Positions 34,218 to 60,315 of a stretch of 60,315 bases of DNA are shown one piece after another. The number at the start of each line of letters is the position of its first letter. Positions within the stretch are counted from its first letter, which is position 1. The position numbers and the translations under genes are program-made. This stretch comes from a virus (lineage: Duplodnaviria > Caudoviricetes): positions 1 to 60,315 of the IMG/VR virus record IMGVR_UViG_3300044996_000347; one strand, written 5' to 3'. The notes under the pieces were generated by a model. It saw only the letters and a program-made list of their open reading frames with translations. It was not told where the DNA came from and made no database searches.

Positions 34218-34405
34218 TATGCATATATCAATTCAATCCAGAATTAATTGCATCAAAAGATCATGGAGATTGCAATCATTGTAAATCAAATGAAAGAAAT
34301 AAAATATGTAGATCATATACCCCAGTAAAAATAAAAGACCTTTATTGGATGTTTAATAGGCAATATGTTGAAAGCAGATTAAAGGAAATAACAGATGGAC
34401 AATAA
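34208..34405 (+). CDS. Small Cys-rich protein, homolog of 1486..1686
   Basis: Shared Cys/LYW pattern. Confidence 0.75.
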   Translation: MEIICIYQFNPELIASKDHGDCNHCKSNERNKICRSYTPVKIKDLYWMFNRQYVESRLKEITDGQ

Positions 34406-34853: not shown

Positions 34854-35049
34854 TGTAACAATGAATGAAGATATAAGGCTACAAAATACCTATGGAACGG
34901 ACGCAATATGTGGATATATCAGAAATCCTAAAAGATATAATCAAATTATAGTTGGAACTTGTGCATTAGACAGCAAATATTGCTCAAAAAGACTTCCAAT
35001 GGATGAATTAAACTGCAGGAGGCAAATACAATATTTCTTTTTTAACTGA
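34837..35049 (+). CDS. Small Cys-containing hypothetical protein
   Basis: Coupled ORF in the operon. Confidence 0.55.
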   Translation: MKKLVDVTMNEDIRLQNTYGTDAICGYIRNPKRYNQIIVGTCALDSKYCSKRLPMDELNCRRQIQYFFFN

Positions 35050-36371: not shown

Positions 36372-36437
36372 TACATCAACAATTATGGTTAAATGTAAAA
36401 TCTGTAAAAGAATATTAACATTTCCTCAAGGAGGAAA

Positions 36438-37067
36438 ATGTATAATAAATGGAAGAATAATAGAAAAACTATGGTAAAATTTATATTTGAAAATAATGAA
36501 ATAGATTTTAATCAAGAAAAGAATGAAATATTGGCAAATGATGAACTAATGAGAATGATGGAAACAAATTCAGATTTATCAGCAAGATTTCATAAAGAAT
36601 TAAGAAAATACTATAAATCAGATAAAATTAAATTAAATATAGGTAGCGGATTCAGACCAAAAATAGATTTTATTAATTTGGATTATGATGAAAAGACATA
36701 CCCCGATATAATAAGAAATATAGATGAAGGATTGCCTTTTGATTCAGATAAATTTGATGAAATATACACAAGTCATGTAATTGAACATGTAAAAGATATA
36801 TTTCTTTTTATATATGAAATGTGGAGAGTAACAAAAAATAAAGGAACAATAACAATAATATGCCCTAATGGACATAATGTGTTTGCATCAATTCAACCAG
36901 ACCATTTAAGGCAGATTAGTTATTCATATTTTGATAGATGGAGACCAGAGCATAGAAGTGTTCAAAATGAATTAAAACAAACCAGAGGAGCATTCTTCAA
37001 TATAATTAAAAGAGAATTATTTAATGAAGAAAGAGAAATTAAATTTATTTTGGAAGTAGTAAAATGA
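36438..37067 (+). CDS. Class I SAM methyltransferase (type 11-like)
   Basis: LNIGSG, LPF, SHVIEHV, WRVTKNKG. Confidence 0.88.
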   Translation: MYNKWKNNRKTMVKFIFENNEIDFNQEKNEILANDELMRMMETNSDLSARFHKELRKYYKSDKIKLNIGSGFRPKIDFINLDYDEKTYPDIIRNIDEGLPFDSDKFDEIYTSHVIEHVKDIFLFIYEMWRVTKNKGTITIICPNGHNVFASIQPDHLRQISYSYFDRWRPEHRSVQNELKQTRGAFFNIIKRELFNEEREIKFILEVVK

Positions 37068-38167
37068 GCGAGTGGTCAGATTCAATAAATCCTTTTAATA
37101 GTATGAAAAGCTTAGTACATTCTGCGCATTATGAAGCAATATTAAAAGGAAAACCATTGAACCCAATAGTTGTTAATTTTGATATGACAAATAAATGCAA
37201 CTATAAATGCAGATTTTGCATGTTTGGGGGAAGAAAAAGAGCAGATAAAACAAGTGAAATATTCAGAAACGACAACTCAGAACTTAATTCATTTCATATA
37301 AAAAAATTACCAAAATTATGGAAAAGATGGGGAATTAAAGCAGAATGTGTTGGAGGTGGTGGAGAGCCAACAATGCATCCTTATTGTTTTGATCATTTGT
37401 TGGATTCTCATAAACAAGGAATAGATATAGGATTTGTAAGTAATGGATTTTTAGTGAATAATGAAAGGAAATGGAATATTGTAATAAAAACATGCAAATG
37501 GGTTGGATTTAGCATTGATGCTGGAAACGAAGAGACATACTCAGCAGTCAAAGGAGTGCCAAAATGCCAATTTAATACAGTTATAAATAATATTAGGGGA
37601 TTAGTAAAAACAAAGGAAAAAATGAAATCAAAATGTAACATTGGATTTAAATTCTTATTGGACGAAGAAAATTATCAAACAATATATCAAGCCGCAAAAT
37701 TAGCAAAAGAAATAGGATGCAATACATTCCAATTCAGACCAGCAATTAATATAGATTATCATTTTGATATGGGTCAGATAGAAATGATAAAACAGCAAAT
37801 AAATAGAGCTCAAAAAGAACTTGATTGTGATAATTTTAAAGTTTTTGGAGTTACTCATAAATTTAATTCAGATTTTTCAAAAAAACACGATTTTAAAAAA
37901 TGCAGAGCAACAATGTTGACAACAACATGGTGTGCAGATGGAAAAGTATATATGTGCACCGATTCAAGAGGAAATCCATGGGCATATTTATGCGACCATT
38001 ATCCCAATCCTGAAAAAGTAATAAAATATTGGGGAAGTAAAGATCATTTTAAGAAGGTTAAAAAAATAAATTTTAAGAAAAATTGTGATAGATGTACCTT
38101 AGAAATGCCAAATCAATTTTTTGAAAAAGTATTTATTCAAGATAAAATGGAGAGATTTTTAGTATGA
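37064..38167 (+). CDS. Radical SAM enzyme with SPASM/twitch domain
   Basis: CNYKCRFC, GGGEP, C...DGKVYMC...CDRC. Confidence 0.92.
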   Translation: MSEWSDSINPFNSMKSLVHSAHYEAILKGKPLNPIVVNFDMTNKCNYKCRFCMFGGRKRADKTSEIFRNDNSELNSFHIKKLPKLWKRWGIKAECVGGGGEPTMHPYCFDHLLDSHKQGIDIGFVSNGFLVNNERKWNIVIKTCKWVGFSIDAGNEETYSAVKGVPKCQFNTVINNIRGLVKTKEKMKSKCNIGFKFLLDEENYQTIYQAAKLAKEIGCNTFQFRPAINIDYHFDMGQIEMIKQQINRAQKELDCDNFKVFGVTHKFNSDFSKKHDFKKCRATMLTTTWCADGKVYMCTDSRGNPWAYLCDHYPNPEKVIKYWGSKDHFKKVKKINFKKNCDRCTLEMPNQFFEKVFIQDKMERFLV

Positions 38168-38841
38168 TAGAAAAACCAGTAGCAATTATATTGCCTTGTC
38201 ATAATTCTGGAAAATACATTCAGATAGCAATAGACGCATTAATAAATAGAACACAATATCCATTTAAACTTATTTTAATAGAATCAGAAAGCACAGATGG
38301 AACAGCAGAAGTATGCGATTTTTATGCAGATACAAATAAAGATATAATTGTTTATCATACAAAAAAAGAAGGATTAGTAAAAGCAATAAACTATGGAATA
38401 CAAATGGCGGAAGATTTAGACGTCTATTTAATGCAGGATGACATAATTGTACCTAGATTATTTGAAAGAGATTGGCTTGCAGAATTAGTGAAAGCGAGTA
38501 AAGAAAAAGATTGCGGAATAGTTGTAACATTAAATGCTGGGGGGATTAGTGGACCAGATTATATAAATGGATTATTTTGGGCAGGAACTTGGAGTACATT
38601 TATTCCTAGATCAACAATAAATAAAATAGGATTATTTGACGAAAATTTTTCTCCAGGATGCGGAGATGACATTGATTATTCATACCGAATTTATAAAGAT
38701 GGATTAAGATTATATATGACAGATTTCTGGGTAGAACACCATAGAAAAACAGAACATTTTAATCAATCAGAAGAACTAAAAAAAGAACATGCAAAATTAT
38801 TCAGAAAAAAATGGAAACTCGGAGAATTTAAAGATGAATGA
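38164..38841 (+). CDS. GT2 glycosyltransferase
   Basis: STDGT, QDD, GLFDENF, DDIDYSYR. Confidence 0.92.
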   Translation: MIEKPVAIILPCHNSGKYIQIAIDALINRTQYPFKLILIESESTDGTAEVCDFYADTNKDIIVYHTKKEGLVKAINYGIQMAEDLDVYLMQDDIIVPRLFERDWLAELVKASKEKDCGIVVTLNAGGISGPDYINGLFWAGTWSTFIPRSTINKIGLFDENFSPGCGDDIDYSYRIYKDGLRLYMTDFWVEHHRKTEHFNQSEELKKEHAKLFRKKWKLGEFKDE

Positions 38842-39706
38842 AACAGCAATACTCATAAACGTACTTGATAGACCCACAGAAATAAGTTTATTGCTTCAAA
38901 GTTTAAGAACTTCAGATTATAAAAAATTTGATATATTTATTTTAGATGATTGTTCTGGGAACTCACTGTTTAACTATCATTTCTTTAATTGTATGATAAA
39001 TAGATTAAAAATGGAAGACCACAAAGTATTTATTAAAAGAACAGATTTTAATCTTGGAGTAACAAAAGCCAGGCAGGAAATAGTTAACTGGGCAATGTCT
39101 ATAAACGATTATAAATACCTATGCAGATTAGATGACGACACGATACTTCAACCAGATTATTTAAGTAGATTAATTAATGTTATAGAACAAGGATATGATA
39201 TGGCCACAGGAGTCACAGTTCCAATGATAACTCCAACTTTTATAAGAGAATCAAAGTTTTTAAAAGGAATAGCAAATAGAGTTATACTTGATGAAGAAGG
39301 AAACTATATAATGAATGCAGATGACTGCGGACAAGAATACACAGAAAGTGTTATAATCCCAGCACATCATTTCAGATCATGTTGCTTATATAAAAGCGAG
39401 ATACATAAAAAGGCGAATTATCTTCCAACAAGACTAAGTAAGAATGGATTCCGTGAAGAACAAATATTTAGTTATAGGGTGCTTATGGCAGGATTTAAAA
39501 TTGGATGTGACACTGGAGCAATTAATTATCATTTAATTTGTCCATCTGGTGGAGAAAGACCAACAATGAATCTTGTACCATTCAATCAACAAATACTCGA
39601 AGAATTCACAAAAGAAAATAAAGAAGAATTAAATAAATTATTTACTCATGAAAATATGCCAGATAAATTGGAATTGCAGAAGGAGAATAATCTTGTTAAA
39701 AAATGA
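38834..39706 (+). CDS. GT2 glycosyltransferase
   Basis: ILDDCS, RLDDD, FREE; start likely at MNETAIL. Confidence 0.85.
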   Translation: MNETAILINVLDRPTEISLLLQSLRTSDYKKFDIFILDDCSGNSLFNYHFFNCMINRLKMEDHKVFIKRTDFNLGVTKARQEIVNWAMSINDYKYLCRLDDDTILQPDYLSRLINVIEQGYDMATGVTVPMITPTFIRESKFLKGIANRVILDEEGNYIMNADDCGQEYTESVIIPAHHFRSCCLYKSEIHKKANYLPTRLSKNGFREEQIFSYRVLMAGFKIGCDTGAINYHLICPSGGERPTMNLVPFNQQILEEFTKENKEELNKLFTHENMPDKLELQKENNLVKK

Positions 39707-40824
39707 TAAATTGTATAGGATCATTGTTTGGACAATCAGGATATGATATTCATTTTAGACAATTAGTAAATGCTTTAAACAAATTAATACCATGCAAAAT
39801 AACAACTAATCTTCATCCAAATTGGTTAAGAGAAGTAAATGATCAAGAACTTGAAATGATCAAAAGGAAGGAAGATTATGAAGTCAATTTGATTATTACA
39901 CATCCAATATTCTGGAGAATAAATGCATATGCTAAGAAGAATATTACTTATTTAGTATGGGAAGGAGATAGAATACCAGAAAGTTTTATTAAAGAATGCT
40001 TAAATCCAAATATACATAAAATTATTGTTCCAAGTAAACATACAGAACAAGCATTATTAAATACTCTATTTCAATATCATAAAAAATTAGACCAATTTGA
40101 TAAAAATGAACTTGGGACTACAATTTTTAATTCTGGATTATGGCATTATAGAGGAATTCTAATGTGGGATAAAATTATAATAATCCCACATGGAGTAGAT
40201 TCAAATTTATTTTATCCAAAAGAAACAAAAAAAGATAAATTTACATTTCTTATGAATAAAGGACTTAGAAATTTAGAAGATAGAGGTGGAATACAATATG
40301 GAATTAAAGCATATTTAGAAGAATTTACAGACAAAGATAATGTACGCATGATTGTTAAGATTAATTCTGCTTATGGAATTCCTGATATAGATAATTTAAT
40401 CAAACAAATTACAGACAAAAAAGAAAATCTTCCAGAATTTTTGATAGATCTAAATAATTATCAATACAATGAAATGATTAATTTCTATAATAAAGGAGAT
40501 GTATTCATAAGTCCAACCAGAGCAGAGGCATTTAATTTGCCATGCATAGAAGCAATGAGTTGTGGATTGCCAATAATAACAACAGACTTCGGAGGTCAAG
40601 CAGAATATGCAATAGGTTGCTTAATTCCGTATACCCTAGCAGAAGTAAAACACGAAGTGCAATATGAAGGAATAAATTGGGCAATCCCAGATATAGATGC
40701 ACTAAAAAAGTCGCTCAGAGAGGCTTATAATGGGAATTTGAGGAATTTAAGGGAACAATGTATCTCTAAAGCAAAAGAAATGAGTTGGGATAAAACAGCA
40801 CAAGAAATATTAAAATTAATATGA
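39703..40824 (+). CDS. GT4 glycosyltransferase
   Basis: SGY, VPS, IPHGVD, EAFNLPCIEAMSCG. Confidence 0.92.
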   Translation: MINCIGSLFGQSGYDIHFRQLVNALNKLIPCKITTNLHPNWLREVNDQELEMIKRKEDYEVNLIITHPIFWRINAYAKKNITYLVWEGDRIPESFIKECLNPNIHKIIVPSKHTEQALLNTLFQYHKKLDQFDKNELGTTIFNSGLWHYRGILMWDKIIIIPHGVDSNLFYPKETKKDKFTFLMNKGLRNLEDRGGIQYGIKAYLEEFTDKDNVRMIVKINSAYGIPDIDNLIKQITDKKENLPEFLIDLNNYQYNEMINFYNKGDVFISPTRAEAFNLPCIEAMSCGLPIITTDFGGQAEYAIGCLIPYTLAEVKHEVQYEGINWAIPDIDALKKSLREAYNGNLRNLREQCISKAKEMSWDKTAQEILKLI

Positions 40825-47236: not shown

Positions 47237-49315
47237 ATGAAAATAACACCATATATGGCCGTTTCTGAAAAAGATAAGTCATTATACTTTAAAGAAGAAT
47301 TTAAATCGCAAGTAGAAAACGATATTGAAAAATGGCCAAATGAACTTGGAGAAAAGCACCCCTTCAATTTTGAAGATGCAGAAAAGGTATATAAAACAGT
47401 TGGAATTGTTTCCGCTTTTATAAATAAGATCGTAGATAACATTGTTGGAGAATTTTCTATAAAAGCAAAGAATAAAAACTCGTTAGCATTAATTAAATCA
47501 TTTATTCATGAATCAAATCTGACAGTAATTCTTAGAGAATGGATAAGGGAAGCATTGAAGAAAGGCAATGGATTTATGGAAATTGATTTAAAAAATCAGA
47601 AAGTTAGAGCTTTAAATGCAAATTATATGTATGTACAAAGAAACAACAAAGGAACAATAGAAGGATATAATCAATTTATTCTGAATCCAAAAAGATTTAC
47701 TATAACATCAAGAAAATTAATACCATTTAAATCACATGAAATATGTCATCTTAAGATTAATGCAAGTCCAGGAGAGGCATATGGTTGGGGATTAATAATG
47801 CCAAATGAAAGAGTAATAGAAAATACAATACTGAATGAGGCAGATTATCAAAAGATGATCACAAGGAAAGCGGGAGCTCCTATACACGTTCAAGTTGGAA
47901 TAGAGGGAGAAAATACAGATTCAAATGCAGTAGATTCTATCAAAAATAGTTTAGTATATATGACAAATAGAACTGAATGGGTAACTGATGGAAATGTCAA
48001 AATGAATGTACTCGACTTTGGTGAAATAGGCAAGAATATAACAGATAATTTAATGCATAATTTCAGAATGTTAGTTGCAGGATTTGAAGTTCCTGAAGTT
48101 ATGATGGGATCTGGCCAATTGAATGAAGGAATAGCAAAAGTGCAACTTGAAACATTCCAAAGAAAGATTGCCAGTTGGCAGGAAGAAATTGAAACAATAA
48201 TAGAGCAACAGATATTCAGACCATTATTGAGAGAAAATAAGTTAGATGAAAAAATAGAATTTATATGGAATCTTCCAAGCGAGGAAGAAATAAACAATAG
48301 AATATCTCAATTAAATATGCTAATGCAGAATATGTATTTATCAAATGCAATGAAATTAAAAATACAGGAAGAAATAGCAAGACTTCTTAATTTTGAAAAT
48401 ATAGATCAAATTATGATAGATTCAGAAAAAGAACAAGAAGCACAAATAGAACAACCAGAAGTACCTGGAGCAAAACCAAATGCAAAAGAGAAACAAGAAG
48501 AACACATCGAAGAAAATAAAAGTGTAACTTTGGAAACACCTATATTAACAGAAACAGAAAAAAATGTTAATATAGAAAAAAATGATATATGTCAACATAA
48601 GATAACGGAATTTATTAAAAAAATTGGTGATGAATGGTGTGTATTTTCTCATCAAACAGGAAAAAACTTTGGATGCTATAAATCTAAAAAAGAAGCTGAA
48701 GATAGACTTGCTCAAATAAGTAAATTTAAGGATGAAGCAGAAGTATGCAAATGTTCAGAAGAAATAAATAAAATAAAGCCATTTGAAGAAATGACTATAC
48801 AAGAATTCTCAAACTTGCAGGAAATTTCAGGATTTAACTATTCTGATTATCTATTAAATATTTTAAGTAGATTAAAAATAGATGAATTTAATGATTTAAA
48901 GGCCATAACAGAAGCAGATGTTGAAAATGGATTATTATCAAATGAACAAATAGAAAAATTGAGGACAATATTAAAGAATGGATTTAAGAAAAATAAATCT
49001 ATGAGAGATATAGAAAACGATATAAAAGATAGTTTAAAACTTAAAGATAGAATAAAAGAAGATGGGGGGATTATTCCAAAAGAAGAGAGACCAGTAATGA
49101 TAAGTAGAACAGAAACAATAAGACTTGCTAATCTTGGACTTTTAGATACTTACAAAGAAAATGATATTGAGGAAGTAAGATGGCTATCAGCATTATCAGA
49201 TAGAACTTGTGATTTATGCGACAGCGAGAATGGAAAAGTCTATAAATTAAATGAAAGTTATGGATTGATTCCAAAACATATAAATTGCAGATGCACTTGG
49301 TTGAGCGTAATATGA
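47237..49315 (+). CDS. Portal protein fused to a MuF/SPP1 gp7-like head morphogenesis domain
   Basis: Portal GNGFME/YGWGL region; C-terminal ISRTE...DRTCDLC...PKHINCRC. Confidence 0.88.
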   Translation: MKITPYMAVSEKDKSLYFKEEFKSQVENDIEKWPNELGEKHPFNFEDAEKVYKTVGIVSAFINKIVDNIVGEFSIKAKNKNSLALIKSFIHESNLTVILREWIREALKKGNGFMEIDLKNQKVRALNANYMYVQRNNKGTIEGYNQFILNPKRFTITSRKLIPFKSHEICHLKINASPGEAYGWGLIMPNERVIENTILNEADYQKMITRKAGAPIHVQVGIEGENTDSNAVDSIKNSLVYMTNRTEWVTDGNVKMNVLDFGEIGKNITDNLMHNFRMLVAGFEVPEVMMGSGQLNEGIAKVQLETFQRKIASWQEEIETIIEQQIFRPLLRENKLDEKIEFIWNLPSEEEINNRISQLNMLMQNMYLSNAMKLKIQEEIARLLNFENIDQIMIDSEKEQEAQIEQPEVPGAKPNAKEKQEEHIEENKSVTLETPILTETEKNVNIEKNDICQHKITEFIKKIGDEWCVFSHQTGKNFGCYKSKKEAEDRLAQISKFKDEAEVCKCSEEINKIKPFEEMTIQEFSNLQEISGFNYSDYLLNILSRLKIDEFNDLKAITEADVENGLLSNEQIEKLRTILKNGFKKNKSMRDIENDIKDSLKLKDRIKEDGGIIPKEERPVMISRTETIRLANLGLLDTYKENDIEEVRWLSALSDRTCDLCDSENGKVYKLNESYGLIPKHINCRCTWLSVI

Positions 49316-49470: not shown

Positions 49471-51150
49471 ATGCAGATTACTGGATATCCCATGGGAAGC
49501 CCAGGGGCAATAGTAGATACAAACGGAAGATTATATGTTGATGCAGTTATTTCAGGGTTGCCTACAGTTGCCGTAAGCGGAAATATAATTATTGGAAGTG
49601 TAAGCGCAAATGTAGATTCGATATATGTTCAATCAGGAACAATGTATGTATCAAGTGGGAATTTTATTGGTAGTGTTTTTCAATCAACAAATCCATGGAT
49701 TACATCTGGAACAAGTACAGTTGCTGGAAGTATATATGCAACGGGAAGCATAAATGTAGCAAATTATAACGGTAGTACAGTTGTATCAAATTTTCCATCA
49801 TTGTACACTATACAACAGAATGCCACCCAAGATAATAATAATAGTTCATCTGGAATATTGATAGCAGGAGGATCATTTGTTGGATCAGCAACTTCTACAC
49901 TTGGAGTTAATGCAATTCAAGTGAGCTTAAAAACAGATAGAAATTGCAAGATATTTGTAGAACAATCACCAGATGGAAGTAATTGGGATTTATCTGATTC
50001 CTATAATTATTATAAAAGTTTAGGTAATTTTGGATTAACAGTTCAGGCAATAAATAGTTATGTTAGAGTTAGAGTAAATAATCAGGATACAACTGGTTCT
50101 ACTTCATATTTTAGATTACAGACAGTTCTATGTCCAATAGTTGAAGCATTGCCAAGAAGTTTAGATGAAAATGGAAATTTAAAAGTCGGAATTAAAGGTA
50201 TAGAAGATTCATATGGATTCGGAGCTGAAAATACTCCCACAGGAGAAATAAGAAGCGTAACTCCATATAGATTAGTTGGAGCAACATTTAATGGAACTAC
50301 AATAGATCCTAATTTTTGGACAAGTACAACAATAAGCGGAGCATCAAATAATCAATCAAATGCACAAATAGTTTTATCTGCAGGGAGTTTAGCCAATTCA
50401 AAAGCAACAATTCAATCAATAAGAACAGCAAGATATCTTGGGGCATCATCAAATAGATTTAGAAGTGTTATAAGAATTCCAGATACAGCAGTATCGAATA
50501 ACCAAAAAAGATGGGGAGCATTTAATGGAAGCGACGGGGCATTTTTTCAATTAAGCGGGGTATCTTTTGGTGTTGGATTATTAAAGGGAGGAAGTGAAAC
50601 AGTCATAAATACTGGAAGTTTCAATGGAATTTTAGGAGATACATATTCAATTGGAAGTCAAGTAAAAACATATGAAATATATTGGACAAATTCCAAAGTA
50701 TGGTATGTTATTGGAGATGATACAATTCATACATATTCTGCTAGTGATACAACATGGTCAACAACAATGAATCTTCCAATAAGGATAGAAAATCATAATA
50801 TTAATAATGGAAGTACTGCATCTGATATAAATGTTAGAGTTGCTACAATAAGCAGATTAGGACCATTGCAATCAGCACCAACATATTATCATAATGCAGG
50901 AAGTGGAAATTATATATTAAAATATGGTCCAGGCGTATTGCAACAATTGAACTTTAATAGTGCGGGGGCGGGAGGAGCAACATTAAATATTTATGATAAT
51001 GTATCTGCATCAGGAGCATTAATTGCAGTATTTGACGCATCAAAAATATCTTCTCCATCAAGTATGAATTATGGTCAAGGAGCAACATTTAATAATGGAT
51101 TGACACTAGGACAAATAGGAAGTTTTGATATAACGGTGATATACGAATGA
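49471..51150 (+). CDS. Ser/Gly/Thr-rich virion structural protein (head fibre or lectin-like)
   Basis: Beta-rich composition; located between portal and protease. Confidence 0.7.
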   Translation: MQITGYPMGSPGAIVDTNGRLYVDAVISGLPTVAVSGNIIIGSVSANVDSIYVQSGTMYVSSGNFIGSVFQSTNPWITSGTSTVAGSIYATGSINVANYNGSTVVSNFPSLYTIQQNATQDNNNSSSGILIAGGSFVGSATSTLGVNAIQVSLKTDRNCKIFVEQSPDGSNWDLSDSYNYYKSLGNFGLTVQAINSYVRVRVNNQDTTGSTSYFRLQTVLCPIVEALPRSLDENGNLKVGIKGIEDSYGFGAENTPTGEIRSVTPYRLVGATFNGTTIDPNFWTSTTISGASNNQSNAQIVLSAGSLANSKATIQSIRTARYLGASSNRFRSVIRIPDTAVSNNQKRWGAFNGSDGAFFQLSGVSFGVGLLKGGSETVINTGSFNGILGDTYSIGSQVKTYEIYWTNSKVWYVIGDDTIHTYSASDTTWSTTMNLPIRIENHNINNGSTASDINVRVATISRLGPLQSAPTYYHNAGSGNYILKYGPGVLQQLNFNSAGAGGATLNIYDNVSASGALIAVFDASKISSPSSMNYGQGATFNNGLTLGQIGSFDITVIYE

Positions 51151-51306
51151 TTAAAAAAATATATAAAAATCTTTATTTTGACGATCAGACTAGTAGATAC
51201 TTCTTTCAGAAGGGAAAAGATAAAATGGAAGTAGTAATGCAGGAGGCTTATTTAATGATTTATATTCTAGAAAATTTATTGGAATTAAAACAAAAGAATA
51301 AAGGAG

Positions 51307-51621
51307 ATGGTCGTATTTATTGATCCAATTACAAGGCAAAGAGTAGTTGCAGATAAGCATAGTTGTGACATTACATATGATCTTCAAGGAGATGATGCAA
51401 TAGCCAAAGAAGATGTACCTCTTATAGGAAATTGGGAAGATTGGACAGGATCAGCAATAGTAAGTTCAAGAAGCCAAATGCAATTTGCATCTAGAGAAAA
51501 TGAGCTACAGGGAACAGATGCTCAGATCGAAGGAAATGCAAAACTTCCAAATCTATCAGTAATTGGAACAAATCTTGCAACACATAGAAGAAGAATAATA
51601 AAAAGATACAAAAAGTTTTAA
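51307..51621 (+). CDS. Hypothetical protein
   Basis: SD aggag. Confidence 0.7.
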   Translation: MVVFIDPITRQRVVADKHSCDITYDLQGDDAIAKEDVPLIGNWEDWTGSAIVSSRSQMQFASRENELQGTDAQIEGNAKLPNLSVIGTNLATHRRRIIKRYKKF

Positions 51622-51651
51622 TATATATAATAAAAATCAATATATTTAAAT
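51620..51651 (+). promoter_or_regulatory. Conserved late-promoter motif, copy 2
   Basis: Same consensus, ending 21 nt before the protease ATG. Confidence 0.75.
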
Positions 51652-51671
51652 AAATTATTTATATAACTTTT

Positions 51672-52535
51672 ATGGACTTAAAATATTCTATTCCTATTAC
51701 AGAAAGCCTGGGTGAATGTACTGATTTTATAATTCAAGGAATAGCAATTAATGAAACAATTACTTCTAATAATCATAAATTTATAGCAGAAGAACTAAAG
51801 AATGCAGCAGGAACATTGATGGGAGTTCCACTTTTAGTAGATCACGAAAATAAAGTAGAAAATATAAAAGGCAGAGTTATTAACAGCTCATTTGATGAAA
51901 CATTTAATAGAATTCCATTCAAAGCAAAAGTTATGGATGAATTATGCAAACAAATGATTAAAGACGGACGCCTTAATTCTGTTAGTGTTGGAGCTGTGGT
52001 TAAATCAGTAGAAGAAGATGGAGAAGGACATCTTATACCTCGAGGATTAGAATTTAAAGAACTAAGTCTTGTTGCAGTCCCAGCAGATTCAAATGCAACA
52101 TTCACAATTGCACTCAAAGAAGCATATCAATCAACAAAAACCGCACTCCCAACGGAACAAAAAGTTACAGAAGTTACAGATGCAAGTAACGATGTGAAAG
52201 TAAGTAAAGAAGAAAAGCAAGAGATGATTAAATGTGAAAATTGTGGAAAGATGATTAAGAAAGAAGAAATGAAAAAGCATATGGAAGAATGCGAAGAATC
52301 AAATTCAAATAAATCAACAGATAAACTGAAAGGAGGTAATCAGATGAGTGAAACAACCGAACAGGTTGATACTAAATTACTTCTTGAAAAGATTGAATCT
52401 TTAGGAAAAGAGCTTGCAGAAATGAAAGCTTCTAAAGTTGAATCTAAAGCAGAAGTAAAAGTAGAAGAAGAAACTTTGCCTTATAGAATTGTATCCGACT
52501 ATAATTCATTTTCACTTATCCAGAACAAATACTGA
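51672..52535 (+). CDS. HK97-type prohead protease with zinc finger and C-terminal scaffold
   Basis: LLVDH, SVSVGA, ELSLVAVPAD; CENC...H...C. Confidence 0.9.
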   Translation: MDLKYSIPITESLGECTDFIIQGIAINETITSNNHKFIAEELKNAAGTLMGVPLLVDHENKVENIKGRVINSSFDETFNRIPFKAKVMDELCKQMIKDGRLNSVSVGAVVKSVEEDGEGHLIPRGLEFKELSLVAVPADSNATFTIALKEAYQSTKTALPTEQKVTEVTDASNDVKVSKEEKQEMIKCENCGKMIKKEEMKKHMEECEESNSNKSTDKLKGGNQMSETTEQVDTKLLLEKIESLGKELAEMKASKVESKAEVKVEEETLPYRIVSDYNSFSLIQNKY

Positions 52536-52987
52536 TGACAAATCCATTGGGTGCTGTCTGTGTATTTGACGGCGATTCTCCTAGAACTTTTACAGGAAAG
52601 GCTAGGACAACGATATCTGGAGGTAATTTGGTTGTAGTAAGCGGTGCAGCAAATGGTATAGGATCTGGAGCAGATACATTCGCAACAAGTGATATTGTTG
52701 TAGATCTACTTGCAAACTCAGATACTTGCAATGGTATAGCTCTGCATAATGCTGCTTCTGGGGCTAATGTCACAGTAGCAACAAGAGGATCTTATATTGT
52801 AAGATGCGGCGGAGTCGTAAGCGGTGGAAACTTAGTTATTCCAGTATCTGGAACAACACAATGTGTAGCTTTATATGGTCACGTAGGTTCACCAAACTAT
52901 GCATTGACAGGAACACCAATAGGACGAGCGCAAATTGCATCTGCATCAGGAACAGCTCTATATACACTTGTCTCACTTAATGTATAA
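52535..52987 (+). CDS. Head decoration/cement protein
   Basis: Small Gly/Ala/Val beta protein directly before the MCP; GIAL..A..G..V.V...G pattern. Confidence 0.75.
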   Translation: MTNPLGAVCVFDGDSPRTFTGKARTTISGGNLVVVSGAANGIGSGADTFATSDIVVDLLANSDTCNGIALHNAASGANVTVATRGSYIVRCGGVVSGGNLVIPVSGTTQCVALYGHVGSPNYALTGTPIGRAQIASASGTALYTLVSLNV

Positions 52988-53856
52988 TGGCATTCAAGAA
53001 AATACAGGAATATATTGGAACAGAGGATGGAACCGCTGGAACATTATTAATTCCTAAGCTAATTATGCCTACTTTGATTGAAGCAGTTCAGAAAGCTTTA
53101 GTGCCTAGAGAAATGGCTGCTGAAGTATGGGGACCAAATCAAATTCAAGGTAGTTCATTTAGTGTAAATCTTGAAACACCAAATACTATGATTGTTAGAG
53201 AAGTTGGCGAAGCAGCAGAAATTCCATTGGATGCATTAGACTTCAGTTCAGTAACCTTCACACCAGTTAAATATGGTGTTGCAATTAGAATCACAAGAGA
53301 AATGATGGAGGACGCTCAATTCGATGTTCTGCAAAGGAACATAAGAACAGCAGGTGTAAGACTTGCTGAAAACGAAACAAAACTAATCCTGACTGCTCTT
53401 GATGGTGCTAATTCAACAGTTGCTGGTGGAGCATCAGCTACAATAGCTAATATAACAGAAGCTATGTACAATGTTGAAGGCCCAAATGTCGATTTTAAAG
53501 CTACAGATATGTTAATAGGACCTGAATTCTTAAACGATTTAAGGAATATTGATGTTTTTGTTGAAGCAAATAAATTCGGAAATAGAGAAATGATGGATAG
53601 AGGCTTTGCAGGAGTAATCTATGGAATGAATGTTGCAAAATTCTCTGGTTCTACTACGGTAGTTCCAGCCGCAGCAAATGCTAAATATGCTTATGTTTTT
53701 GATAGAACACAGGCATATGGTATTGCTATTAAGAGGGACATTACAGTAGAAAACTTCAAACTTCCAACATTCGATTTGGAAGGTGCAGCAATAACTATGA
53801 GAATTGATGTAAAGCTACTTAAATCAACCGCAGTATCAAGAATTACAACCTCGTAA
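52987..53856 (+). CDS. Major capsid protein (HK97 fold)
   Basis: GTLLIP, VGEAAEIP, KYGVAIRITREMMED, G.IYGMNV. Confidence 0.92.
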   Translation: MAFKKIQEYIGTEDGTAGTLLIPKLIMPTLIEAVQKALVPREMAAEVWGPNQIQGSSFSVNLETPNTMIVREVGEAAEIPLDALDFSSVTFTPVKYGVAIRITREMMEDAQFDVLQRNIRTAGVRLAENETKLILTALDGANSTVAGGASATIANITEAMYNVEGPNVDFKATDMLIGPEFLNDLRNIDVFVEANKFGNREMMDRGFAGVIYGMNVAKFSGSTTVVPAAANAKYAYVFDRTQAYGIAIKRDITVENFKLPTFDLEGAAITMRIDVKLLKSTAVSRITTS

Positions 53857-53961
53857 GAGTAAAAGTAGGGTGTTAAGTTGAACACCATATATTAATCAAA
53901 TAATATATGAGGACCTTAATATAAATCCCTATTTCATAATCAATTAAATCAAGGAGAAAAT

Positions 53962-54204
53962 ATGGCAGTTTTAACCACAGGAAGTACAGTACTTGGATGC
54001 ATTAAAGGAATGAACTCATATACTTATGCGTCTGGAACTTATAATATAGTCCCAGATTTATATGTAGTTCAAGGAAATCCAAATGCAAAAGTAACTTCCA
54101 CAAAAGTCAGCGGATTGGCATATGATATATCAACAGGAGAAGTATATATTGCTGTTGGAACAAATGTGTCTGCTGGCGGAAGCACTTGGAGAGTATTAGT
54201 ATAG
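53962..54204 (+). CDS. Small virion protein
   Basis: SD aggag; position after the MCP. Confidence 0.7.
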   Translation: MAVLTTGSTVLGCIKGMNSYTYASGTYNIVPDLYVVQGNPNAKVTSTKVSGLAYDISTGEVYIAVGTNVSAGGSTWRVLV

Positions 54205-54212
54205 GAGGCTAA

Positions 54213-54581
54213 ATGACAACCACAACTGGAAGTCTAGCCTTATTTCTAAATGAAAATTTTGTAAGCTTACCTGCTGGACTTTCTGGGAATATGATTGAAA
54301 TAGTAGATTACGCCAGGCAACATGTTGCTAATTGGGTAGGTTATACAATTGATGCTAACGGAATTGATGATAAATATATACCGCCAATCTTAGATTTCGC
54401 AAAAGCAGATTTAATTGATTTAAAAAACGCAAATGGTGACGGCGGAACATTGAGTATAGGAGAGTTATCAATAAATGATGCAGGCGCACAATTAAGTGCA
54501 GAACAATACAGACTTTTAGGAGAAATGAAGTTAAAAGGAATAGGAAGAAAAATAAATTGGGCTAGAAGCCTTTCATTTTAA
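54213..54581 (+). CDS. Head-tail adaptor
   Basis: Helical, about 120 aa, synteny, SIGELSI motif. Confidence 0.7.
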   Translation: MTTTTGSLALFLNENFVSLPAGLSGNMIEIVDYARQHVANWVGYTIDANGIDDKYIPPILDFAKADLIDLKNANGDGGTLSIGELSINDAGAQLSAEQYRLLGEMKLKGIGRKINWARSLSF

Positions 54582-54582
54582 A

Positions 54583-55008
54583 ATGTATGATACACGATTT
54601 ATTAAAGGGTTCAATAGGCTGTTAGACAAAGCATCACAACCAATTAAGATTAGATATTTTACTCCTACAATAGGAAGTGTATGGGATGATGAAGTAACAT
54701 TGACACAATCGGGTACCGATTTATGGACAAGTGGAATTCCTCAATCTTTAGAACTATCAAGAGGTTCAATAGACAGCAATCTTCTTGAGCAGGGGAAATT
54801 AATTTATAATGATTCAAAATTATTTATTCCTGGAAGCATTATATTAACTGGATCAACATATATGATCAAAATACAGATCGGAAGTCCAACTGGAGAAAAT
54901 TATACAATGATTCCTGAAGGTACAGATGATTATACAGTTGAAGGAACACCAACTCACAAAAAAGCATACATAAGAAGAATAACAACTGGATCGCTGTTGG
55001 GAGAATAA
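54583..55008 (+). CDS. Head closure/stopper protein
   Basis: Synteny, beta-rich. Confidence 0.65.
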   Translation: MYDTRFIKGFNRLLDKASQPIKIRYFTPTIGSVWDDEVTLTQSGTDLWTSGIPQSLELSRGSIDSNLLEQGKLIYNDSKLFIPGSIILTGSTYMIKIQIGSPTGENYTMIPEGTDDYTVEGTPTHKKAYIRRITTGSLLGE

Positions 55009-55009
55009 A

Positions 55010-55375
55010 ATGGTTTCTATTGAAATGGATATCAGTAAGTTTAAGAAATTTATGGAAAATAAACAGAAACAAATGAAAGAAAAAATACCTGAATCTGTGA
55101 AACAAGCAACTCTTTATATGCATAATCAAGTCAAAGAAAGCATAGCAAGAGGAATAAATGCTCCTGTTGCCGTTGATACAGGAAGATTTGTCAATTCAGT
55201 AGATTTTGAAAGTACAGGAGAAAATGAAGCAAAAGTATTCAGCGAGTTGGAATATGCAAAATTCATAGAATATGGAACAAGCAAAATGGCATCAAGACCA
55301 CACTTCAGGAATACTGCAAATAAAGAAAAATCACAAGTCAAGGAAATAATGAAAGCAAATGTAAGGTTTAAATAA
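55010..55375 (+). CDS. HK97 gp10-like tail completion protein
   Basis: VDTGR...S...YAKFIEYGTSKMASRPHF. Confidence 0.9.
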   Translation: MVSIEMDISKFKKFMENKQKQMKEKIPESVKQATLYMHNQVKESIARGINAPVAVDTGRFVNSVDFESTGENEAKVFSELEYAKFIEYGTSKMASRPHFRNTANKEKSQVKEIMKANVRFK

Positions 55376-55405
55376 TATATATAACCAAAATCAAGTTATT
55401 TAAAT
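55374..55405 (+). promoter_or_regulatory. Conserved late-promoter motif, copy 3
   Basis: Same consensus, upstream of the tail operon. Confidence 0.7.
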
Positions 55406-55461
55406 TTAGATTATTGACTAATTAAGTCTTAAAGCGATAAGACAAATTTCAAGCGAGAAAC

Positions 55462-55905
55462 ATGGCATCAAAAGATACACTACTAAGAGATATACTCTAT
55501 TTTCTAAAGAATGATTTAAGCGCAAATATAACAGATCCATTGAATAGAACAAATGGAATAGGTTTTATAATGACTAGTTATCCTCAAAGAAATGTCAAAT
55601 ATCCAGTAATTACAATTAAATGCACAAATCTAAAAGCTCCAAGATCAGGTATGCAAACTACACTTCAAGACATAACAATAACAATAGAAATAAGAATATG
55701 GGCCAGAAATGAAAAAGAAAAAGATACATTATTTAATCAAGTAATGAGCAGGTTGACAAATATCCAGTTTACTGCATCAACAGGAAGTGTAGCAAATGAT
55801 TTTCATAATTTTGATATATTAAGTGGAATAGAAATAGATGAAGAAGGAGATGGTGGAATAAAATCAAGAATACTTCAAATTAAATATAACTTTTATAATC
55901 TATGA
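55462..55905 (+). CDS. Tail terminator protein
   Basis: YPVITI...IEIRIWA; synteny. Confidence 0.75.
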   Translation: MASKDTLLRDILYFLKNDLSANITDPLNRTNGIGFIMTSYPQRNVKYPVITIKCTNLKAPRSGMQTTLQDITITIEIRIWARNEKEKDTLFNQVMSRLTNIQFTASTGSVANDFHNFDILSGIEIDEEGDGGIKSRILQIKYNFYNL

Positions 55906-55918
55906 AAGGAGGTAAAAA

Positions 55919-56920
55919 ATGACGAGATTTGTAAATGATCAAAATAAGGTAATAATGTTCTGTGAATCTGGAACTTATGCTACTGCAAGTGGAACTGCTG
56001 GGCTTTGGATAGGATTAGTTGAAAATAATACTCTTGACGATGCTGAAAATAAAATGGAAACACGTTTTGTTGGAGCAAGTACAAGAAGTTTTTCTCAAAT
56101 GATACCTGGACCAAGAGATATAAAAGGAACATTAACATACGCTCCTCAAGATATGAGACTCCCATTTTTATCGATAGGAAGCGTAGTTGATGGTGGTACA
56201 ACAAACAAATACACACATCTTGCAACACAAATAAACAACGATGTGAGGCAATCTCCTTTTACGAGCGGTACTTTAAACCCACCAACAAGTTTTACTATAG
56301 AAGATAGTAAAACATCAACAGGAGCAAATAATACATTTATTAGAACAATAAATGGATGCATAACTGATTCGACTAAAATTACTGCAACTCAAAGTGAAAA
56401 AGTTAGAATAGATATAGATTATATCGGACAAACTTTAAATTTTACTTCTGGAACAGCAAGCTCAACAACAGTCAGCACTACAACACCATACCTATGGAAT
56501 AACTGCAGTCTGACAATGAGTGGAACTTCAATCACAACAGCAAAAGAAGTAATACTTGAGATTAATCAGAATCTTGAAGCACCACATTACTTAAATGGAT
56601 CAAGAGATATAAGTGTTCCTTTCTTTAAGAATAGGGAAAACAAAATGACTGTAACATTAGACTTAGATGCTCCAACAAGCAGTTTATTGTATAATGGATT
56701 ATACAAAAATAATGCGCAGTTTGACACTACATTCGATATGAATGCAGATGTTACTGCAACAGGAAGCCAACATACAATATTCTTCTTAAGCGGATGCAGG
56801 ATAACTTCTATGGATGCTCCAAGCGAAGTAGAAGGAGTAACAGAATCTACTCTTGAAATGAGTTGCCCTATTTTGATAGGAAGTGCGTTTGATAACGTTC
56901 AGAAATATTGCTATTGGTAG
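55919..56920 (+). CDS. Major tail tube protein
   Basis: Strong SD; ESGTY..., LEINQNLE motifs; synteny. Confidence 0.85.
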   Translation: MTRFVNDQNKVIMFCESGTYATASGTAGLWIGLVENNTLDDAENKMETRFVGASTRSFSQMIPGPRDIKGTLTYAPQDMRLPFLSIGSVVDGGTTNKYTHLATQINNDVRQSPFTSGTLNPPTSFTIEDSKTSTGANNTFIRTINGCITDSTKITATQSEKVRIDIDYIGQTLNFTSGTASSTTVSTTTPYLWNNCSLTMSGTSITTAKEVILEINQNLEAPHYLNGSRDISVPFFKNRENKMTVTLDLDAPTSSLLYNGLYKNNAQFDTTFDMNADVTATGSQHTIFFLSGCRITSMDAPSEVEGVTESTLEMSCPILIGSAFDNVQKYCYW

Positions 56921-56953
56921 TAATATTTATACTATATAAAGATTTATTAAGGT

Positions 56954-57847: not shown

Positions 57848-58991
57848 AAGAATAGAGATTTTAATAAAAGCAGTTGATGAAGCAAGTCAAACATTAAAAA
57901 ATATAGAGAAGCAAATACAAACAACAGCAAAGAATTCTGAAAAAGCAAATGTTTCTCTTGGAGATTCATTTAAAAAAGTTCAAGGAGCAATGCTTAATCT
58001 TGGTCAGGTAGCACAAGGAATACACAACATATTTGAAACAAATGAAAGAGCAACAAGAAATCTTGAAAATGCGCAGGATAGACTTGAAAACGCAACACTT
58101 AGATTAAAGCAGGCACAACAGGATTTAAGTGATGTAGAGAAAAATCATGCAAGGGACAGTTTAACATTAGAAAAAGCAACAATAGCCAATACGCGCGCAC
58201 AAGAAGATTTAAGATTTTATACTAACAGATTAGAGCAAGGAATAACATTTACTGGAGAAAAATTAAAAAATTATCAAGATGCTCAAATAAGAGCAAAAGA
58301 AGCCGCACTTGACTTGGCAGATGCACAACAACTAAGTACAGATAAGGCAAAAGAACTAAAAGACAAACAAGATGCATTAATTATTGCCACTAATAACGTA
58401 GATCGAGCAACAAGAGGATTAGAAAAAGCTCAAGGAGATGCTAAATGGGCTATGGTTGATATGGGGGTACAAGCAATAAGTGTTGCTGGAAATTTGGGAT
58501 CATTAGCAACAGCGATCGGTGGAACTGGAGGATTAACTTCTATGTTTACATCCTTGACTACAGCAGTTGGAGTGGGAGGATTATTGGCAACAGGAGGAAC
58601 AGTTGCTGCAATCGTTGGATTAATTACTGTATTGGGAATGTTAACTCCAGAAACACCCTCATATGTTGCAGCTATACAAACAAGAATTGCAAATTTAGAA
58701 GAATTAAGAAAAAAGGCAGATGAAACAGAAAAAGCATTTTATGATCTAATGATTCAAGAACAAAAACTAAAATCATTTCAATATCTAACTGGGTCGGGTC
58801 AATATGGAGGAAGAGTTACTCAATCAGGTTATACTCCCAAAGGTATGGAAAGGGCGCCATCATATATTCCGATAATACCCACAGCTCCAAAATTCACAGT
58901 AATTAATAATATTGGAACAATACAAGGAATAAGTGCAACACAAATAAGCAGATCCTTATCAAATGAATTAAATAACAAATTATCACTATGA
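57834..58991 (+). CDS. Short tape measure protein
   Basis: IEILIKAVDEAS N-terminus, coiled coil, Gly/Ala hydrophobic segment. Confidence 0.85.
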   Translation: MAEDERIEILIKAVDEASQTLKNIEKQIQTTAKNSEKANVSLGDSFKKVQGAMLNLGQVAQGIHNIFETNERATRNLENAQDRLENATLRLKQAQQDLSDVEKNHARDSLTLEKATIANTRAQEDLRFYTNRLEQGITFTGEKLKNYQDAQIRAKEAALDLADAQQLSTDKAKELKDKQDALIIATNNVDRATRGLEKAQGDAKWAMVDMGVQAISVAGNLGSLATAIGGTGGLTSMFTSLTTAVGVGGLLATGGTVAAIVGLITVLGMLTPETPSYVAAIQTRIANLEELRKKADETEKAFYDLMIQEQKLKSFQYLTGSGQYGGRVTQSGYTPKGMERAPSYIPIIPTAPKFTVINNIGTIQGISATQISRSLSNELNNKLSL

Positions 58992-60315
58992 TTAAGACAA
59001 AAATGACTGTGAATGGGACAGAATTCTCTGATTATCAAAATCTAATTATTAGCAAAACTATGGATGAAGCAAATGCATCGAGTTCATTTAATGCAATATT
59101 TGATTCTCCTTATGGAAGGCATAAATCTGATTTTTCTGTTGGACAAGAAGTAATTATATACGCAGATAAAGATGCAGAAGCAACAACAATAATATTTAAA
59201 GGAATACTAGAAAAAATTGTATTTAGTGGAGAAGAAACAGAACAAACAGTTGAATTATCTGGTAGAGATTATACCGTCAGATTAATGGATATCACAGTAG
59301 AGCCAATTGTATTCTCTGAAACAGAAATATCAGACATTGTTAAAAATATCTTAACAAATAACAATGTTCCTGATATAACAACAACGAATGTGCAAAATAC
59401 AGGAAAAACATTAAAAAGAATAGGATTTAATCATACTCCAATTTTTGATGCATTAAAACAATTAGCAGATCTAGCAGGATTTATTTTTTATGTCGATGTA
59501 AATAAGGACTTGCACTTTGAGCAAGCAGATACATCCAGTTCAGGAATTACATTAAATAATTCAAATTTAATTAAAATTGATTATGACAAATCCAGGCAGG
59601 GAATGGCTAATAAGATATGGGTTTATGGAGATAGATATTTATCAGAAGTACCAGCAGAACAATTCACAATGGGAAGTCCTTTAGGTGGAAGTGCAATAAC
59701 ATTGACATATAAGCCACACAATACAACAGTCACTTATCTTGGGAATATACTTAAAGGAGCAGTTGAAGGTATGACTTTAATTCCTACAAGTGGACAAGAT
59801 TACGGTGTATCATTTGATGATAGACAAATTTTATTTTATTCTGGTGGAGATTTTCCAAACTTTCCTGCAAGTGGAGGAAGTGTGATTGTTAATTATTATA
59901 GAGATTTGCCTATAGTTAAATATGGTCAAGACGATAATTCAATAGCATTATATGGACCAAAAAATCTTAAAATACAAGATAGTACAATAAAAGATCCTCA
60001 AACTGCACTAGATATATTAAAACAGAAGTTAAATGACGTAAATCCATTTAATAGAGTAGAATGCATTTTGAAAGGATGGTATTCTATATTGCCAGGACAA
60101 ACTATAGATATTCAACTTGATCATTTTGGATTAACAGATACATTATCAATATTAGAAGTTAATTATAGACTTGACAAAAATTCCGTACAATCAGAAAATG
60201 TTTTAAATTTAATTATTAATAAAAAGTTTTTAGACATAACAGATAAAATCAAAGAAATAAATAGAAGATTAACATTATTAGAAACACAGAACCTTCAAGA
60301 TTCTGATATCCTTAG
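58988..60315 (+). CDS. Baseplate hub/tail tip protein, truncated at the window end
   Basis: MIKTKMTVNG...FKGILEK...LSGRDY...FDALKQLADLAGFIFYVD...LHF; appears open to the window end. Confidence 0.8.
   Translation, partial: MIKTKMTVNGTEFSDYQNLIISKTMDEANASSSFNAIFDSPYGRHKSDFSVGQEVIIYADKDAEATTIIFKGILEKIVFSGEETEQTVELSGRDYTVRLMDITVEPIVFSETEISDIVKNILTNNNVPDITTTNVQNTGKTLKRIGFNHTPIFDALKQLADLAGFIFYVDVNKDLHFEQADTSSSGITLNNSNLIKIDYDKSRQGMANKIWVYGDRYLSEVPAEQFTMGSPLGGSAITLTYKPHNTTVTYLGNILKGAVEGMTLIPTSGQDYGVSFDDRQILFYSGGDFPNFPASGGSVIVNYYRDLPIVKYGQDDNSIALYGPKNLKIQDSTIKDPQTALDILKQKLNDVNPFNRVECILKGWYSILPGQTIDIQLDHFGLTDTLSILEVNYRLDKNSVQSENVLNLIINKKFLDITDKIKEINRRLTLLETQNLQDSDIL

Follow-up and report, generated by a model that had tools for sequence, protein, structure and literature searches.

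Conserved serine-glycine pairs in small virion proteins of an archaeal tailed virus that encodes a glycosyltransferase cluster

Tailed phages that decorate their own particles with sugars provide the closest described comparison for the virus examined here. Sections of PMC12363180 and PMC13445384, citing Freeman 2023, state that glycosyltransferases (GTs) of mycobacteriophages glycosylate the phages' own capsid and tail tube. The window analyzed here, the complete 60,315-base virus record IMGVR_UViG_3300044996_000347 (about 30% GC), shares several traits with the Che8, Corndog and Myrna systems: virus-encoded GTs and a methyltransferase close to the structural genes, and a virion assembled in the cytoplasm. 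In Corndog, gp35-38 are encoded between the portal and the major capsid protein (MCP). Freeman et al. in 2023 reportedly placed the glycans of Che8, Corndog and Myrna at the C-terminal ends of the major capsid and tube subunits. The subject of this study, serines next to glycine in the virion proteins of the window, looks different: these candidate sites are internal, numerous within each protein and fixed in position, and the window MCP is not enriched in them. The Che8 and Corndog capsid and tube proteins show no excess of Ser-Gly or Gly-Ser dipeptides (SG/GS), and their GT sets lack BLASTP similarity to that of the window, as judged from Corndog gp35-38. Three of the four MCP and tube proteins of Che8 (5051-5872, 7613-8422) and Corndog (20547-21779, 24316-25131), namely both Che8 proteins and the Corndog MCP, end in G-S, and the fourth ends in G-D-S. 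Among 12 MCP and tube proteins from six other viruses, only the HK97 MCP ends this way, so a G-S ending is not diagnostic. No virion protein of the window, MCP and tube included, ends in G-S, and the C-terminal type of target is thus not seen there.

A second comparison comes from glycocins. As described in parts of PMC6405829, the S-/O-glycosyltransferases SunS, ThuS and PalS act on Cys or Ser in a Gly-flanked loop (Gly-Cys-Gly-Gly/Ser). The likeness to a possible acceptor role of the window serines lies in a cytoplasmic GT and a hydroxyl- or thiol-bearing residue with Gly neighbors in an exposed loop, whereas the glycocin substrates described there are small peptides that bear a leader and carry one or two sites each. 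GT genes also occur in viruses of DPANN archaea and the Candidate Phyla Radiation (CPR), where sections of PMC12647753 and PMC11310336 interpret them as auxiliary genes for modifying the host surface and name no virion target or acceptor motif. The window resembles these viruses in having GT genes in a DPANN-linked setting, as some contigs among its portal relatives bear the names of Nanoarchaeota and Woesearchaeota metagenome-assembled genomes (MAGs). It differs from them in that its GTs form a conserved multi-gene cluster beside DNA methylases and packaging genes. Literature searched by topic yielded no paper that names a Ser-Gly or S-G-T motif for virion proteins, nor one that gives an acceptor rule for any archaeal tailed virus.

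The central observation is that serine stands beside glycine in the virion module far more often than composition predicts. The excess acts at the protein level, is positionally conserved, lies mostly in coil next to strands and is restricted to a few protein families. Rightwards from 26.8 kb, Pfam and PHROG matches delineate the GT cluster, one C5 and three N6/N4 DNA methylases, the packaging genes and the head, neck and tail genes. The calls for TerL, portal, MCP, gp10-like protein and tube are backed by Pfam. The features concerned are as follows.

31825..40824, + strand: GT and tailoring cluster (Pfam), comprising GT4 (31825), B12-binding radical SAM enzyme (33027), GT2 plus methyltransferase (35049), methyltransferase (36438), radical SAM enzyme (37064), GT2 (38164), GT2 (38789) and GT4 (39703)
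47237..49315, + strand: portal fused to a Mu-F-like domain (Pfam), without SG/GS excess
49471..51150, + strand: 559-residue virion structural protein with role unassigned (phrog_1645, E 3.6e-12), 28 SG/GS dipeptides and 5 SGT/TGS
51307..51621, + strand: 104-residue conserved open reading frame (ORF) of the head module with one TGS, homologues in 65 loci
51672..52535, + strand: prohead protease/scaffold-like protein (PHROG), 23 Ser, 0 beside Gly
52535..52987, + strand: capsid decoration protein of 150 residues with a beta-tulip / phi29 gp8.5-base fold (AlphaFold2 (AF2) and Foldseek), 10 SG/GS dipeptides
52987..53856, + strand: HK97-fold MCP (Pfam PF25209/PF05065), a negative case for SG/GS
53962..54204, + strand: 80-residue protein, family unassigned, 4 SG/GS, 3 of them conserved
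54213..54581, + strand: 122-residue head-tail protein, family unassigned, conserved TTGS at 4-7 and LSG at 23-25
54583..55008, + strand: head-completion "stopper" of 141 residues (AF2 and Foldseek), 8 SG/GS dipeptides, all conserved
55010..55375, + strand: HK97 gp10-like tail component (Pfam PF04883), 10 Ser, 0 beside Gly
55462..55905, + strand: tail-terminator-like protein (phrog_176, a weak match at E 0.0015), one invariant GS at position 108, in STGS
55919..56920, + strand: tail tube protein (Pfam PF18906, E 3.1e-13), 10 SG/GS and 6 SGT/TGS
58988..60313, + strand: baseplate hub / distal tail protein (phrog_177, E 3.4e-16), truncated by the contig end

Expected counts and p values were obtained from residue shuffles inside each protein, 2000 per ORF. 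The hand counts in the initial annotation proved exact: 9 of 14 serines in the decoration protein (3.8 expected, p=0.003) and 8 of 13 in the stopper (2.5 expected, p=0.0005) lie beside glycine. The largest count belongs to the 49471 protein, with 27 such serines against 15.3 expected (p=0.0005) and SG/GS at intervals of 6-9 residues through its N-terminal ~100 residues. The tube (10 vs 4.2, p=0.003) and hub (9 vs 4.1, p=0.014) follow, with smaller values for the terminator-like protein (3 vs 0.95, p=0.054) and the 80-residue protein at 53962 (4 vs 1.8, p=0.075). No excess appears in the shuffles for the protease/scaffold (0 vs 2.2), gp10-like protein (0 vs 0.7), portal (2 vs 3.4), MCP (3 vs 1.6) or tape measure protein (3 vs 3.2). 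Pooled without selection, all 14 structural ORFs hold 85 SG/GS against 48.6 expected, an observed-to-expected ratio (O/E) of 1.75 (z 5.8). The pairs TG, AG, NG and DG are not enriched in the same pool (1.13, 1.12, 0.92 and 0.77). When all 185 dipeptide classes of the virion module are scanned, SG/GS comes out on top (z 5.3, next 3.0), and among 4200 mirror tripeptide classes SGT/TGS does (22 vs 4.4, z 8.4, next 5.2), with no enrichment of SGS, TGT or AGT/TGA.

The strings ASGT, TSGT, TGS and GSP of the initial annotation do recur; the hub has GSP and lacks SGT/TGS. The proposed comparison of structural with non-structural ORFs speaks against a pattern bound purely to the virion, since the 32 non-structural ORFs between 26.8 and 47 kb also reach an O/E of 1.56 (49 vs 31.3). 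This value stems largely from one gene, a ParB-N6/N4 DNA methylase fusion (42750-44057). That non-virion protein has 9 serines beside glycine where 2.9 are expected (p<0.0005), and its 8 homologues in relatives have an O/E of 1.71.

The pattern extends across the lineage. Single-protein portal searches returned 0 relatives, and a portal alignment search was needed to retrieve 82 loci with 27-40% GC. In these relatives, ORFs downstream of the portal have an SG/GS O/E of 1.54 (2324 vs 1506) and an SGT/TGS O/E of 4.07 (520 vs 127.8), while ORFs upstream of the portal, terminase excluded, show only 1.15 and 1.69 (39 vs 23.1). By family, SG/GS is enriched in the decoration protein (1.89), stopper (2.34), tube (2.07), terminator (2.34), 53962 (2.19) and 49471 (2.47, with 3 BLAST homologues among the relatives), and is not in excess in MCP (0.93), portal (0.69), terminase (0.80), protease (0.77) or gp10-like protein (0.25). 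The tripeptides sharpen this division. SGT/TGS reaches 6.3 in the tube (82 vs 13.1), 6.8 in the stopper and 4.5 in the decoration protein, with 21 vs 2.5 in 53962, 14 vs 1.8 in the terminator and 29 vs 7.4 in the 51307 family. It is not enriched in MCP (0.11; 1 vs 8.8 in 50 sequences), portal (0.41; 5 vs 12.3), gp10-like protein (0 vs 1.6) or GT4b (0 vs 2.3).

Among downstream ORFs that lack BLAST similarity to the window, only the small ones (50-200 residues) are enriched, and their excess is concentrated in small clusters with median lengths of 75-156 residues. These clusters are probably diverged members of the same families and are therefore not counted as an independent replicate. The 14 ORFs of at least 400 residues in the relatives lie at expectation, with SG/GS at 1.00 (118 vs 117.8) and SGT/TGS at 1.17. 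Over the relatives as a whole, NG and DG are not enriched (0.96 and 1.01). The excess in the relatives is limited to small, beta-rich virion proteins downstream of the portal. As an aside, Hint/intein and HNH domains (PF07591, PF14890, PF01844) are present in one portal homologue (P0051, 904 residues), a sign that the portal gene of that relative may contain an intein.

Alignments show that the sites themselves are conserved. For the stopper, 25 sequences with a median identity to the window of 45% were compared; each of the 8 window sites occurs in 52-100% of them, and S50-G51 is invariant. One stopper homologue (L074, 15093-15662) is extended at its C-terminus by about 45 residues, unlike the other 24. 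Seven of the 10 tube sites occur in at least 89% of 19 sequences, the sites at 7, 24 and 73 of 53962 in 80-90% of 10 sequences, and both sites of 54213 in 86-89% of 35 sequences. In the decoration family, S28 is kept in 88 of 103 representatives, S36 in 80, S44 in 93, S75 in 100 and S138 in 83, and every representative holds 4-11 SG/GS, each above expectation. The 51307 family has no conserved SG/GS column. After masking of the conserved columns, the residual O/E falls to 0.50 in the stopper, 0.80 in the tube, 0.66 in 53962, 0.32 in 54213 and 1.15 in the decoration protein. Since no excess remains outside the conserved columns, new sites are not being gained, and the excess is inherited rather than renewed. 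Glycine columns are 72-100% conserved. Across 33 conserved serine columns (906 cells), serine occupies 752 cells, followed by T (32), A (26), G (23), N (22) and D (9).

The local context of the pairs is symmetric. The virion module has 41 SG and 44 GS, and the flanks are mirror images, hydrophobic-S-G-T and T-G-S-hydrophobic, with the hydrophobic residues on the serine side. Threonine is enriched 3.3-fold after SG and 3.1-fold before GS. Structural placement was read from the DSSP strings of two AF2 models. In the decoration protein, 9 of 10 dipeptides lie in coil, 8 of these within 2 residues of a strand or helix end; in the stopper, 6 of 8 lie in coil, 4 of these equally close to such an end. 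The combined 15 of 18 dipeptides in coil fits the location expected of a canonical beta-turn motif. The exchange of serine for Asn, Asp, Thr or Gly at the same site, also expected of such a motif, is not the pattern found in the 33 columns.

Other tailed viruses help to place these numbers. Counted over the same four protein classes, SG/GS number 31 in the window against 11.9 expected and SGT/TGS 12 against 1.5, compared with 47 vs 38.5 (O/E 1.22) and 4 vs 3.2 for seven comparator phages pooled; their stopper rows, summed by hand, give 12 vs about 6.7. The haloviruses HFTV1 and BLv36 are of particular value, as their complete records contain no match to GT2 or GT4. Their decoration proteins align to the window family profile by hhalign (HFTV1 gp18, probability 70.6; BLv36 ORF45, probability 90.9), and both keep the S75-G76 pair. 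HFTV1 gp18 also keeps S36-G37, and retains S28 as S-A-G; BLv36 ORF45 has T-G at 36-37 and keeps S138. The retention of these sites in viruses that lack GTs indicates that some of the pairs are long-standing traits of this fold and do not depend on a GT. Neither virus has an overall SG/GS excess (1.11 and 1.15); the counts in their decoration proteins are 4 vs 2.7 expected in HFTV1 gp18 and 2 vs 3.5 in BLv36 ORF45. This comparison, drawn from two halophilic and deeply diverged genomes, cuts both ways.

The GT cluster is present in every relative that can be judged. Homologues of GT2b and GT4b occur in 18 of the 18 relatives for which 7 kb or more upstream of the portal is available. They lie within the locus in 17 of these; in L081 they sit 10-28 kb upstream of the portal, further up the contig, and L081 was therefore rejected as a GT-less relative. 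Three loci (L030, L024, L063), fragments of 11-16.5 kb with 4.3-6.3 kb upstream, cannot be judged on this point. Records of four long relatives, two with terminal repeats, each contain 2-4 GT2 and 2-3 GT4 matches. Virus-encoded GTs are thus conserved with the virion genes, as in the Che8/Corndog type. No GT-less family member was found, so the comparison proposed earlier, between relatives with and without GTs, is impossible inside the family. The enzymes themselves match only generic GT2 and GT4 models. NCBIfam returns generic matches far below curated cut-offs, SdgA/SdgB and GtfA among them, and a PDB sequence search with GT4b finds sucrose-phosphate-synthase-like proteins and Gtf1 (E 1e-4 to 6e-4), while GT2b has no match. 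GT2 is also the family of SunS, ThuS and PalS. None of the cluster proteins has a transmembrane-like segment. Corndog gp35-38 compared by BLASTP with eight cluster proteins show no similarity, the best value (E 0.006) belonging to an unrelated pair. Homologues of the two radical SAM enzymes are found in few relatives (radical SAM in 5 loci, B12-binding radical SAM in 3). The second radical SAM protein (37064-38167) has the prokaryotic viperin family as its second-best NCBIfam match (E 1.9e-19, 69.9 bits), below the cut-off of 180.

We give roughly even chances to the reading that the Ser-Gly pairs are fixed turn or strand-end residues in the folds of a few small, beta-rich virion proteins of this lineage, namely the decoration protein, the 80-residue protein, the stopper, the terminator, the tube, the hub and the N-terminal repeat of 49471. 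Glycine would provide the backbone angles for a tight turn, the neighboring serine would sit within that turn, and a beta-branched threonine or a hydrophobic residue would begin or close the adjoining strand, yielding hydrophobic-S-G-T and its mirror T-G-S-hydrophobic. Known beta-turn preferences include Gly followed by Ser, Thr or Asn in type II' hairpins, and Ser, Asn or Asp followed by Gly in type I turns with a G1 bulge. The window agrees with these textbook turns in the position of its dipeptides in coil beside strands, in the strong conservation of glycine and in the beta-branched or hydrophobic flank. The mild excess that seven other phages show in these protein classes (1.22) is also in keeping with it. 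We infer that folding and assembly, rather than modification, account for the conservation.

Several results weigh against this reading. The density of pairs is about twice that of the same classes in the seven other phages, so the size of the excess is specific to the lineage, and the AT-rich phages TP901-1 and phiCD119 stay at 0.99 and 0.98. The N-G, D-G and G-N excesses that textbook turns predict are absent, N-G and D-G being at or below expectation in the window and close to it in the relatives, and Asn and Asp seldom replace serine (22 and 9 of 906 cells); turn geometry alone therefore does not predict the pattern. Two stopper sites, invariant S50-G51 among them, fall in a long strand. 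Finally, the GT-less haloviruses have no overall excess and the motif-rich lineage always carries GTs, which is what a glycosylation acceptor would predict as well.

That rival holds that serine in S-G(-T) or (T-)G-S at hairpin tips is a putative acceptor for cytoplasmic O-glycosylation by the conserved soluble GT2 and GT4 enzymes; the cluster's methyltransferases and radical SAM enzymes would modify the sugar further, and the sites would be fixed ones serving stability, assembly or adhesion rather than a shifting shield. We consider it rather unlikely, although several results fit it. Of the three outcomes by which the initial annotation would have seen its idea refuted, none clearly occurred. 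No di- or tripeptide of the virion module is a stronger outlier than this motif, its excess is specific to serine, and selection acts on the protein. It is confined to the module downstream of the portal in the 82 relatives, and neither eight other tailed viruses nor 317 ORFs from a Nanoarchaeota MAG share it. GT2 and GT4 accompany it in every relative that can be judged, the cluster proteins appear soluble, and the haloviruses without GTs show no overall excess. Virion GTs of mycobacteriophages (PMC12363180) and the glycocin GTs acting on Gly-flanked Cys or Ser (PMC6405829), as far as the relevant sections of these papers describe them, supply precedents. The same data set contains points that sit poorly with an acceptor. 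Sites do not turn over, some are present in the GT-less haloviruses, and threonine takes the place of serine in just 32 of the 906 cells. Enrichment is lacking in the most exposed parts, the MCP and large ORFs, and the densest proteins are the stopper and terminator, which the fold matches would place between other rings in solved phage necks. The mirror symmetry of the motif, the lack of SG excess in the capsid or tube of the known glycosylating phages Che8 and Corndog, the generic GT families without BLASTP similarity to Corndog gp35-38, and the host-surface role assigned to such GTs in sections of the DPANN-virus papers (PMC12647753, PMC11310336) all point the same way. The broader form of this idea, in which a GT2-GT2-GT4 set O-glycosylates decoration, neck and tube proteins as a lineage-wide rule in tailed viruses of DPANN-type archaea, appears equally doubtful. 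The SG/GS sequon of the initial annotation, if linear in the manner of N-x-S/T, would be directional, and the nearly equal SG and GS counts with mirror-image flanks show no direction. A shifting glycan shield is unlikely, given fixed sites (residual O/E 0.32-1.15) and the absence of enrichment in the MCP and in the relatives' ORFs of at least 400 residues. Fixity, placement in coil beside strands, mirror symmetry, concentration in the neck and absence from the MCP and large ORFs favor structural turns over such a shield.

The motif could also be read by something other than a GT, either another modifying enzyme such as a radical SAM enzyme or methyltransferase, or a shared assembly or chaperone contact of proteins that join after the procapsid. 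In tailed phages, decoration, neck, tube and hub proteins join after procapsid formation. The enriched proteins of the window are the counterparts of these late joiners, the MCP, portal and protease/scaffold are depleted, and a B12-binding and a second radical SAM enzyme are present in the cluster. The radical SAM homologues, found in few relatives (5 and 3 loci), do not match a family-wide motif, and the idea is an argument from inference that comes with no candidate reader protein. We rate it as very improbable. Still further down the scale, and largely refuted by the data, is the view that composition, AT-rich coding, a motif at the DNA level or a host-proteome habit produces the excess as a side effect. 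It could draw on the O/E of 1.56 in non-structural ORFs of the window and on codon use, as serines beside glycine (49471-60313) are coded by AGT/AGC more often than other serines of the same genes (45/81 vs 76/219). Composition as a cause is ruled out by shuffles that hold it fixed inside each protein; the excess persists in these and in the motif scans, contrary to one refuting outcome the earlier analysis had foreseen. AT-rich coding fails as a cause, as TP901-1 (36% GC) and phiCD119 (30% GC) have pooled structural SG/GS values of 0.99 and 0.98. The other pooled values are 1.11 for HFTV1, 1.29 for lambda, 1.03 for SPP1, 0.91 for HK97, 1.16 for Che8 and 1.15 for BLv36, so that the eight viruses together span 0.91-1.29. 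A DNA-level motif was rejected because 52 distinct 9-mers encode SGT and 53 encode TGS in the relatives, using both serine codon families; this diversity of codon combinations shows that selection acts on the protein. A host habit was also rejected: in a Nanoarchaeota MAG, 317 ORFs taken from three contigs reach 1.11 for SG/GS and 1.17 for SGT/TGS, where the MAG also holds a contig of a relative and is assumed to represent the host lineage. The relatives' ORFs upstream of the portal, at only 1.15 for SG/GS, agree with this.

The gene names on which the comparison depends, as given in the initial annotation, hold up, through fold matches for 52535 and 54583 and through Pfam for others. The AF2 model of the decoration protein (pLDDT 88) matches the phi29 gp8.5 base (E 1.9e-5) and HFTV1 capsid chains (TM-score 0.64-0.67) in Foldseek, these two with E from 1.9e-5 to 6.9e-5, as well as proteins of TW1, T1 and Pam3; a tblastn search against a phage collection gave no match. 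Its gene lies directly upstream of the MCP gene, and fold and position both fit a beta-tulip decoration protein. It shares its fold with the phi29 gp8.5 base, HFTV1 gp18, TW1 gp56 and the T1 and Pam3 proteins, and its location between protease/scaffold and MCP with the decoration genes of HFTV1, BLv36 and lambda, and differs from described members in its SG/GS content (4-11 per protein in the window family; 4, 2 and 1 in HFTV1 gp18, BLv36 ORF45 and lambda gpD). The protein also contains an internal repeat (residues 27-37 and 95-106, I/V-S-G-G-N-L-V-x-x-V-S-G), a hint that duplication gave rise to its two strand-turn units. The stopper model (pLDDT 84.8) matches the phiCD508 neck (E 3.4e-4), the SPP1 connector (6.9e-3) and the T1 stopper, with E from 3.4e-4 to 0.03 and TM-scores of 0.45-0.54. 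Its gene lies between 54213 and the gp10-like gene, and position together with a modest fold match fits the SPP1 gp16 / lambda gpFII type. Support for 54583 as a probable stopper is modest and weaker than for the decoration call. The look-alikes of the 49471 protein in the Atlas are viral hypotheticals only. The nearest named relatives of the MCP are haloarchaeal tailed viruses (23-28% identity).

Beyond these genes, tape measure and HNH endonuclease genes lie between the tube and the hub. The HNH gene (56954-57457) sits between the tube gene and a small ORF preceding the tape measure, and has a homologue in 1 of the 82 relatives' loci. The left half of the window had been treated as a separate virus. 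A 2645-residue protein encoded there (12974-20911) has domains in common with ORFs that lie within the structural modules of relatives (L035:17245-21864, L021:17403-18881), with E 2.7e-40 against the 1540-residue ORF of L035; an 808-residue lectin-domain protein has no match in the records of four relatives. Because the window is a single virus record and these domains are shared, the presence of two viruses is doubtful, and the left half may belong to the same virus as the right half. The large left-half proteins (8337-26499) are also nearly devoid of Pro-Gly/Gly-Pro (2 vs 25.2 expected), a pair that is low in non-structural ORFs (8 vs 23.5) and in relatives (O/E 0.63-0.65) as well.

GT clusters are common in uncultivated archaeal and DPANN viruses, and a signature in the virion module offers a concrete and cheap test of their function. 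If the acceptor reading were true, it would provide the first rule for acceptor sites in the virion glycosylation of an archaeal virus, a rule readable from sequence alone; with sugars present, virion glycosylation could become predictable from metagenomes. If no sugars are present, the lineage would show with unusual clarity how a fixed Ser-Gly(-Thr) turn idiom recurs in small virion folds that are unrelated, a case relevant to structure prediction and a caution against taking a motif excess for a sequon.

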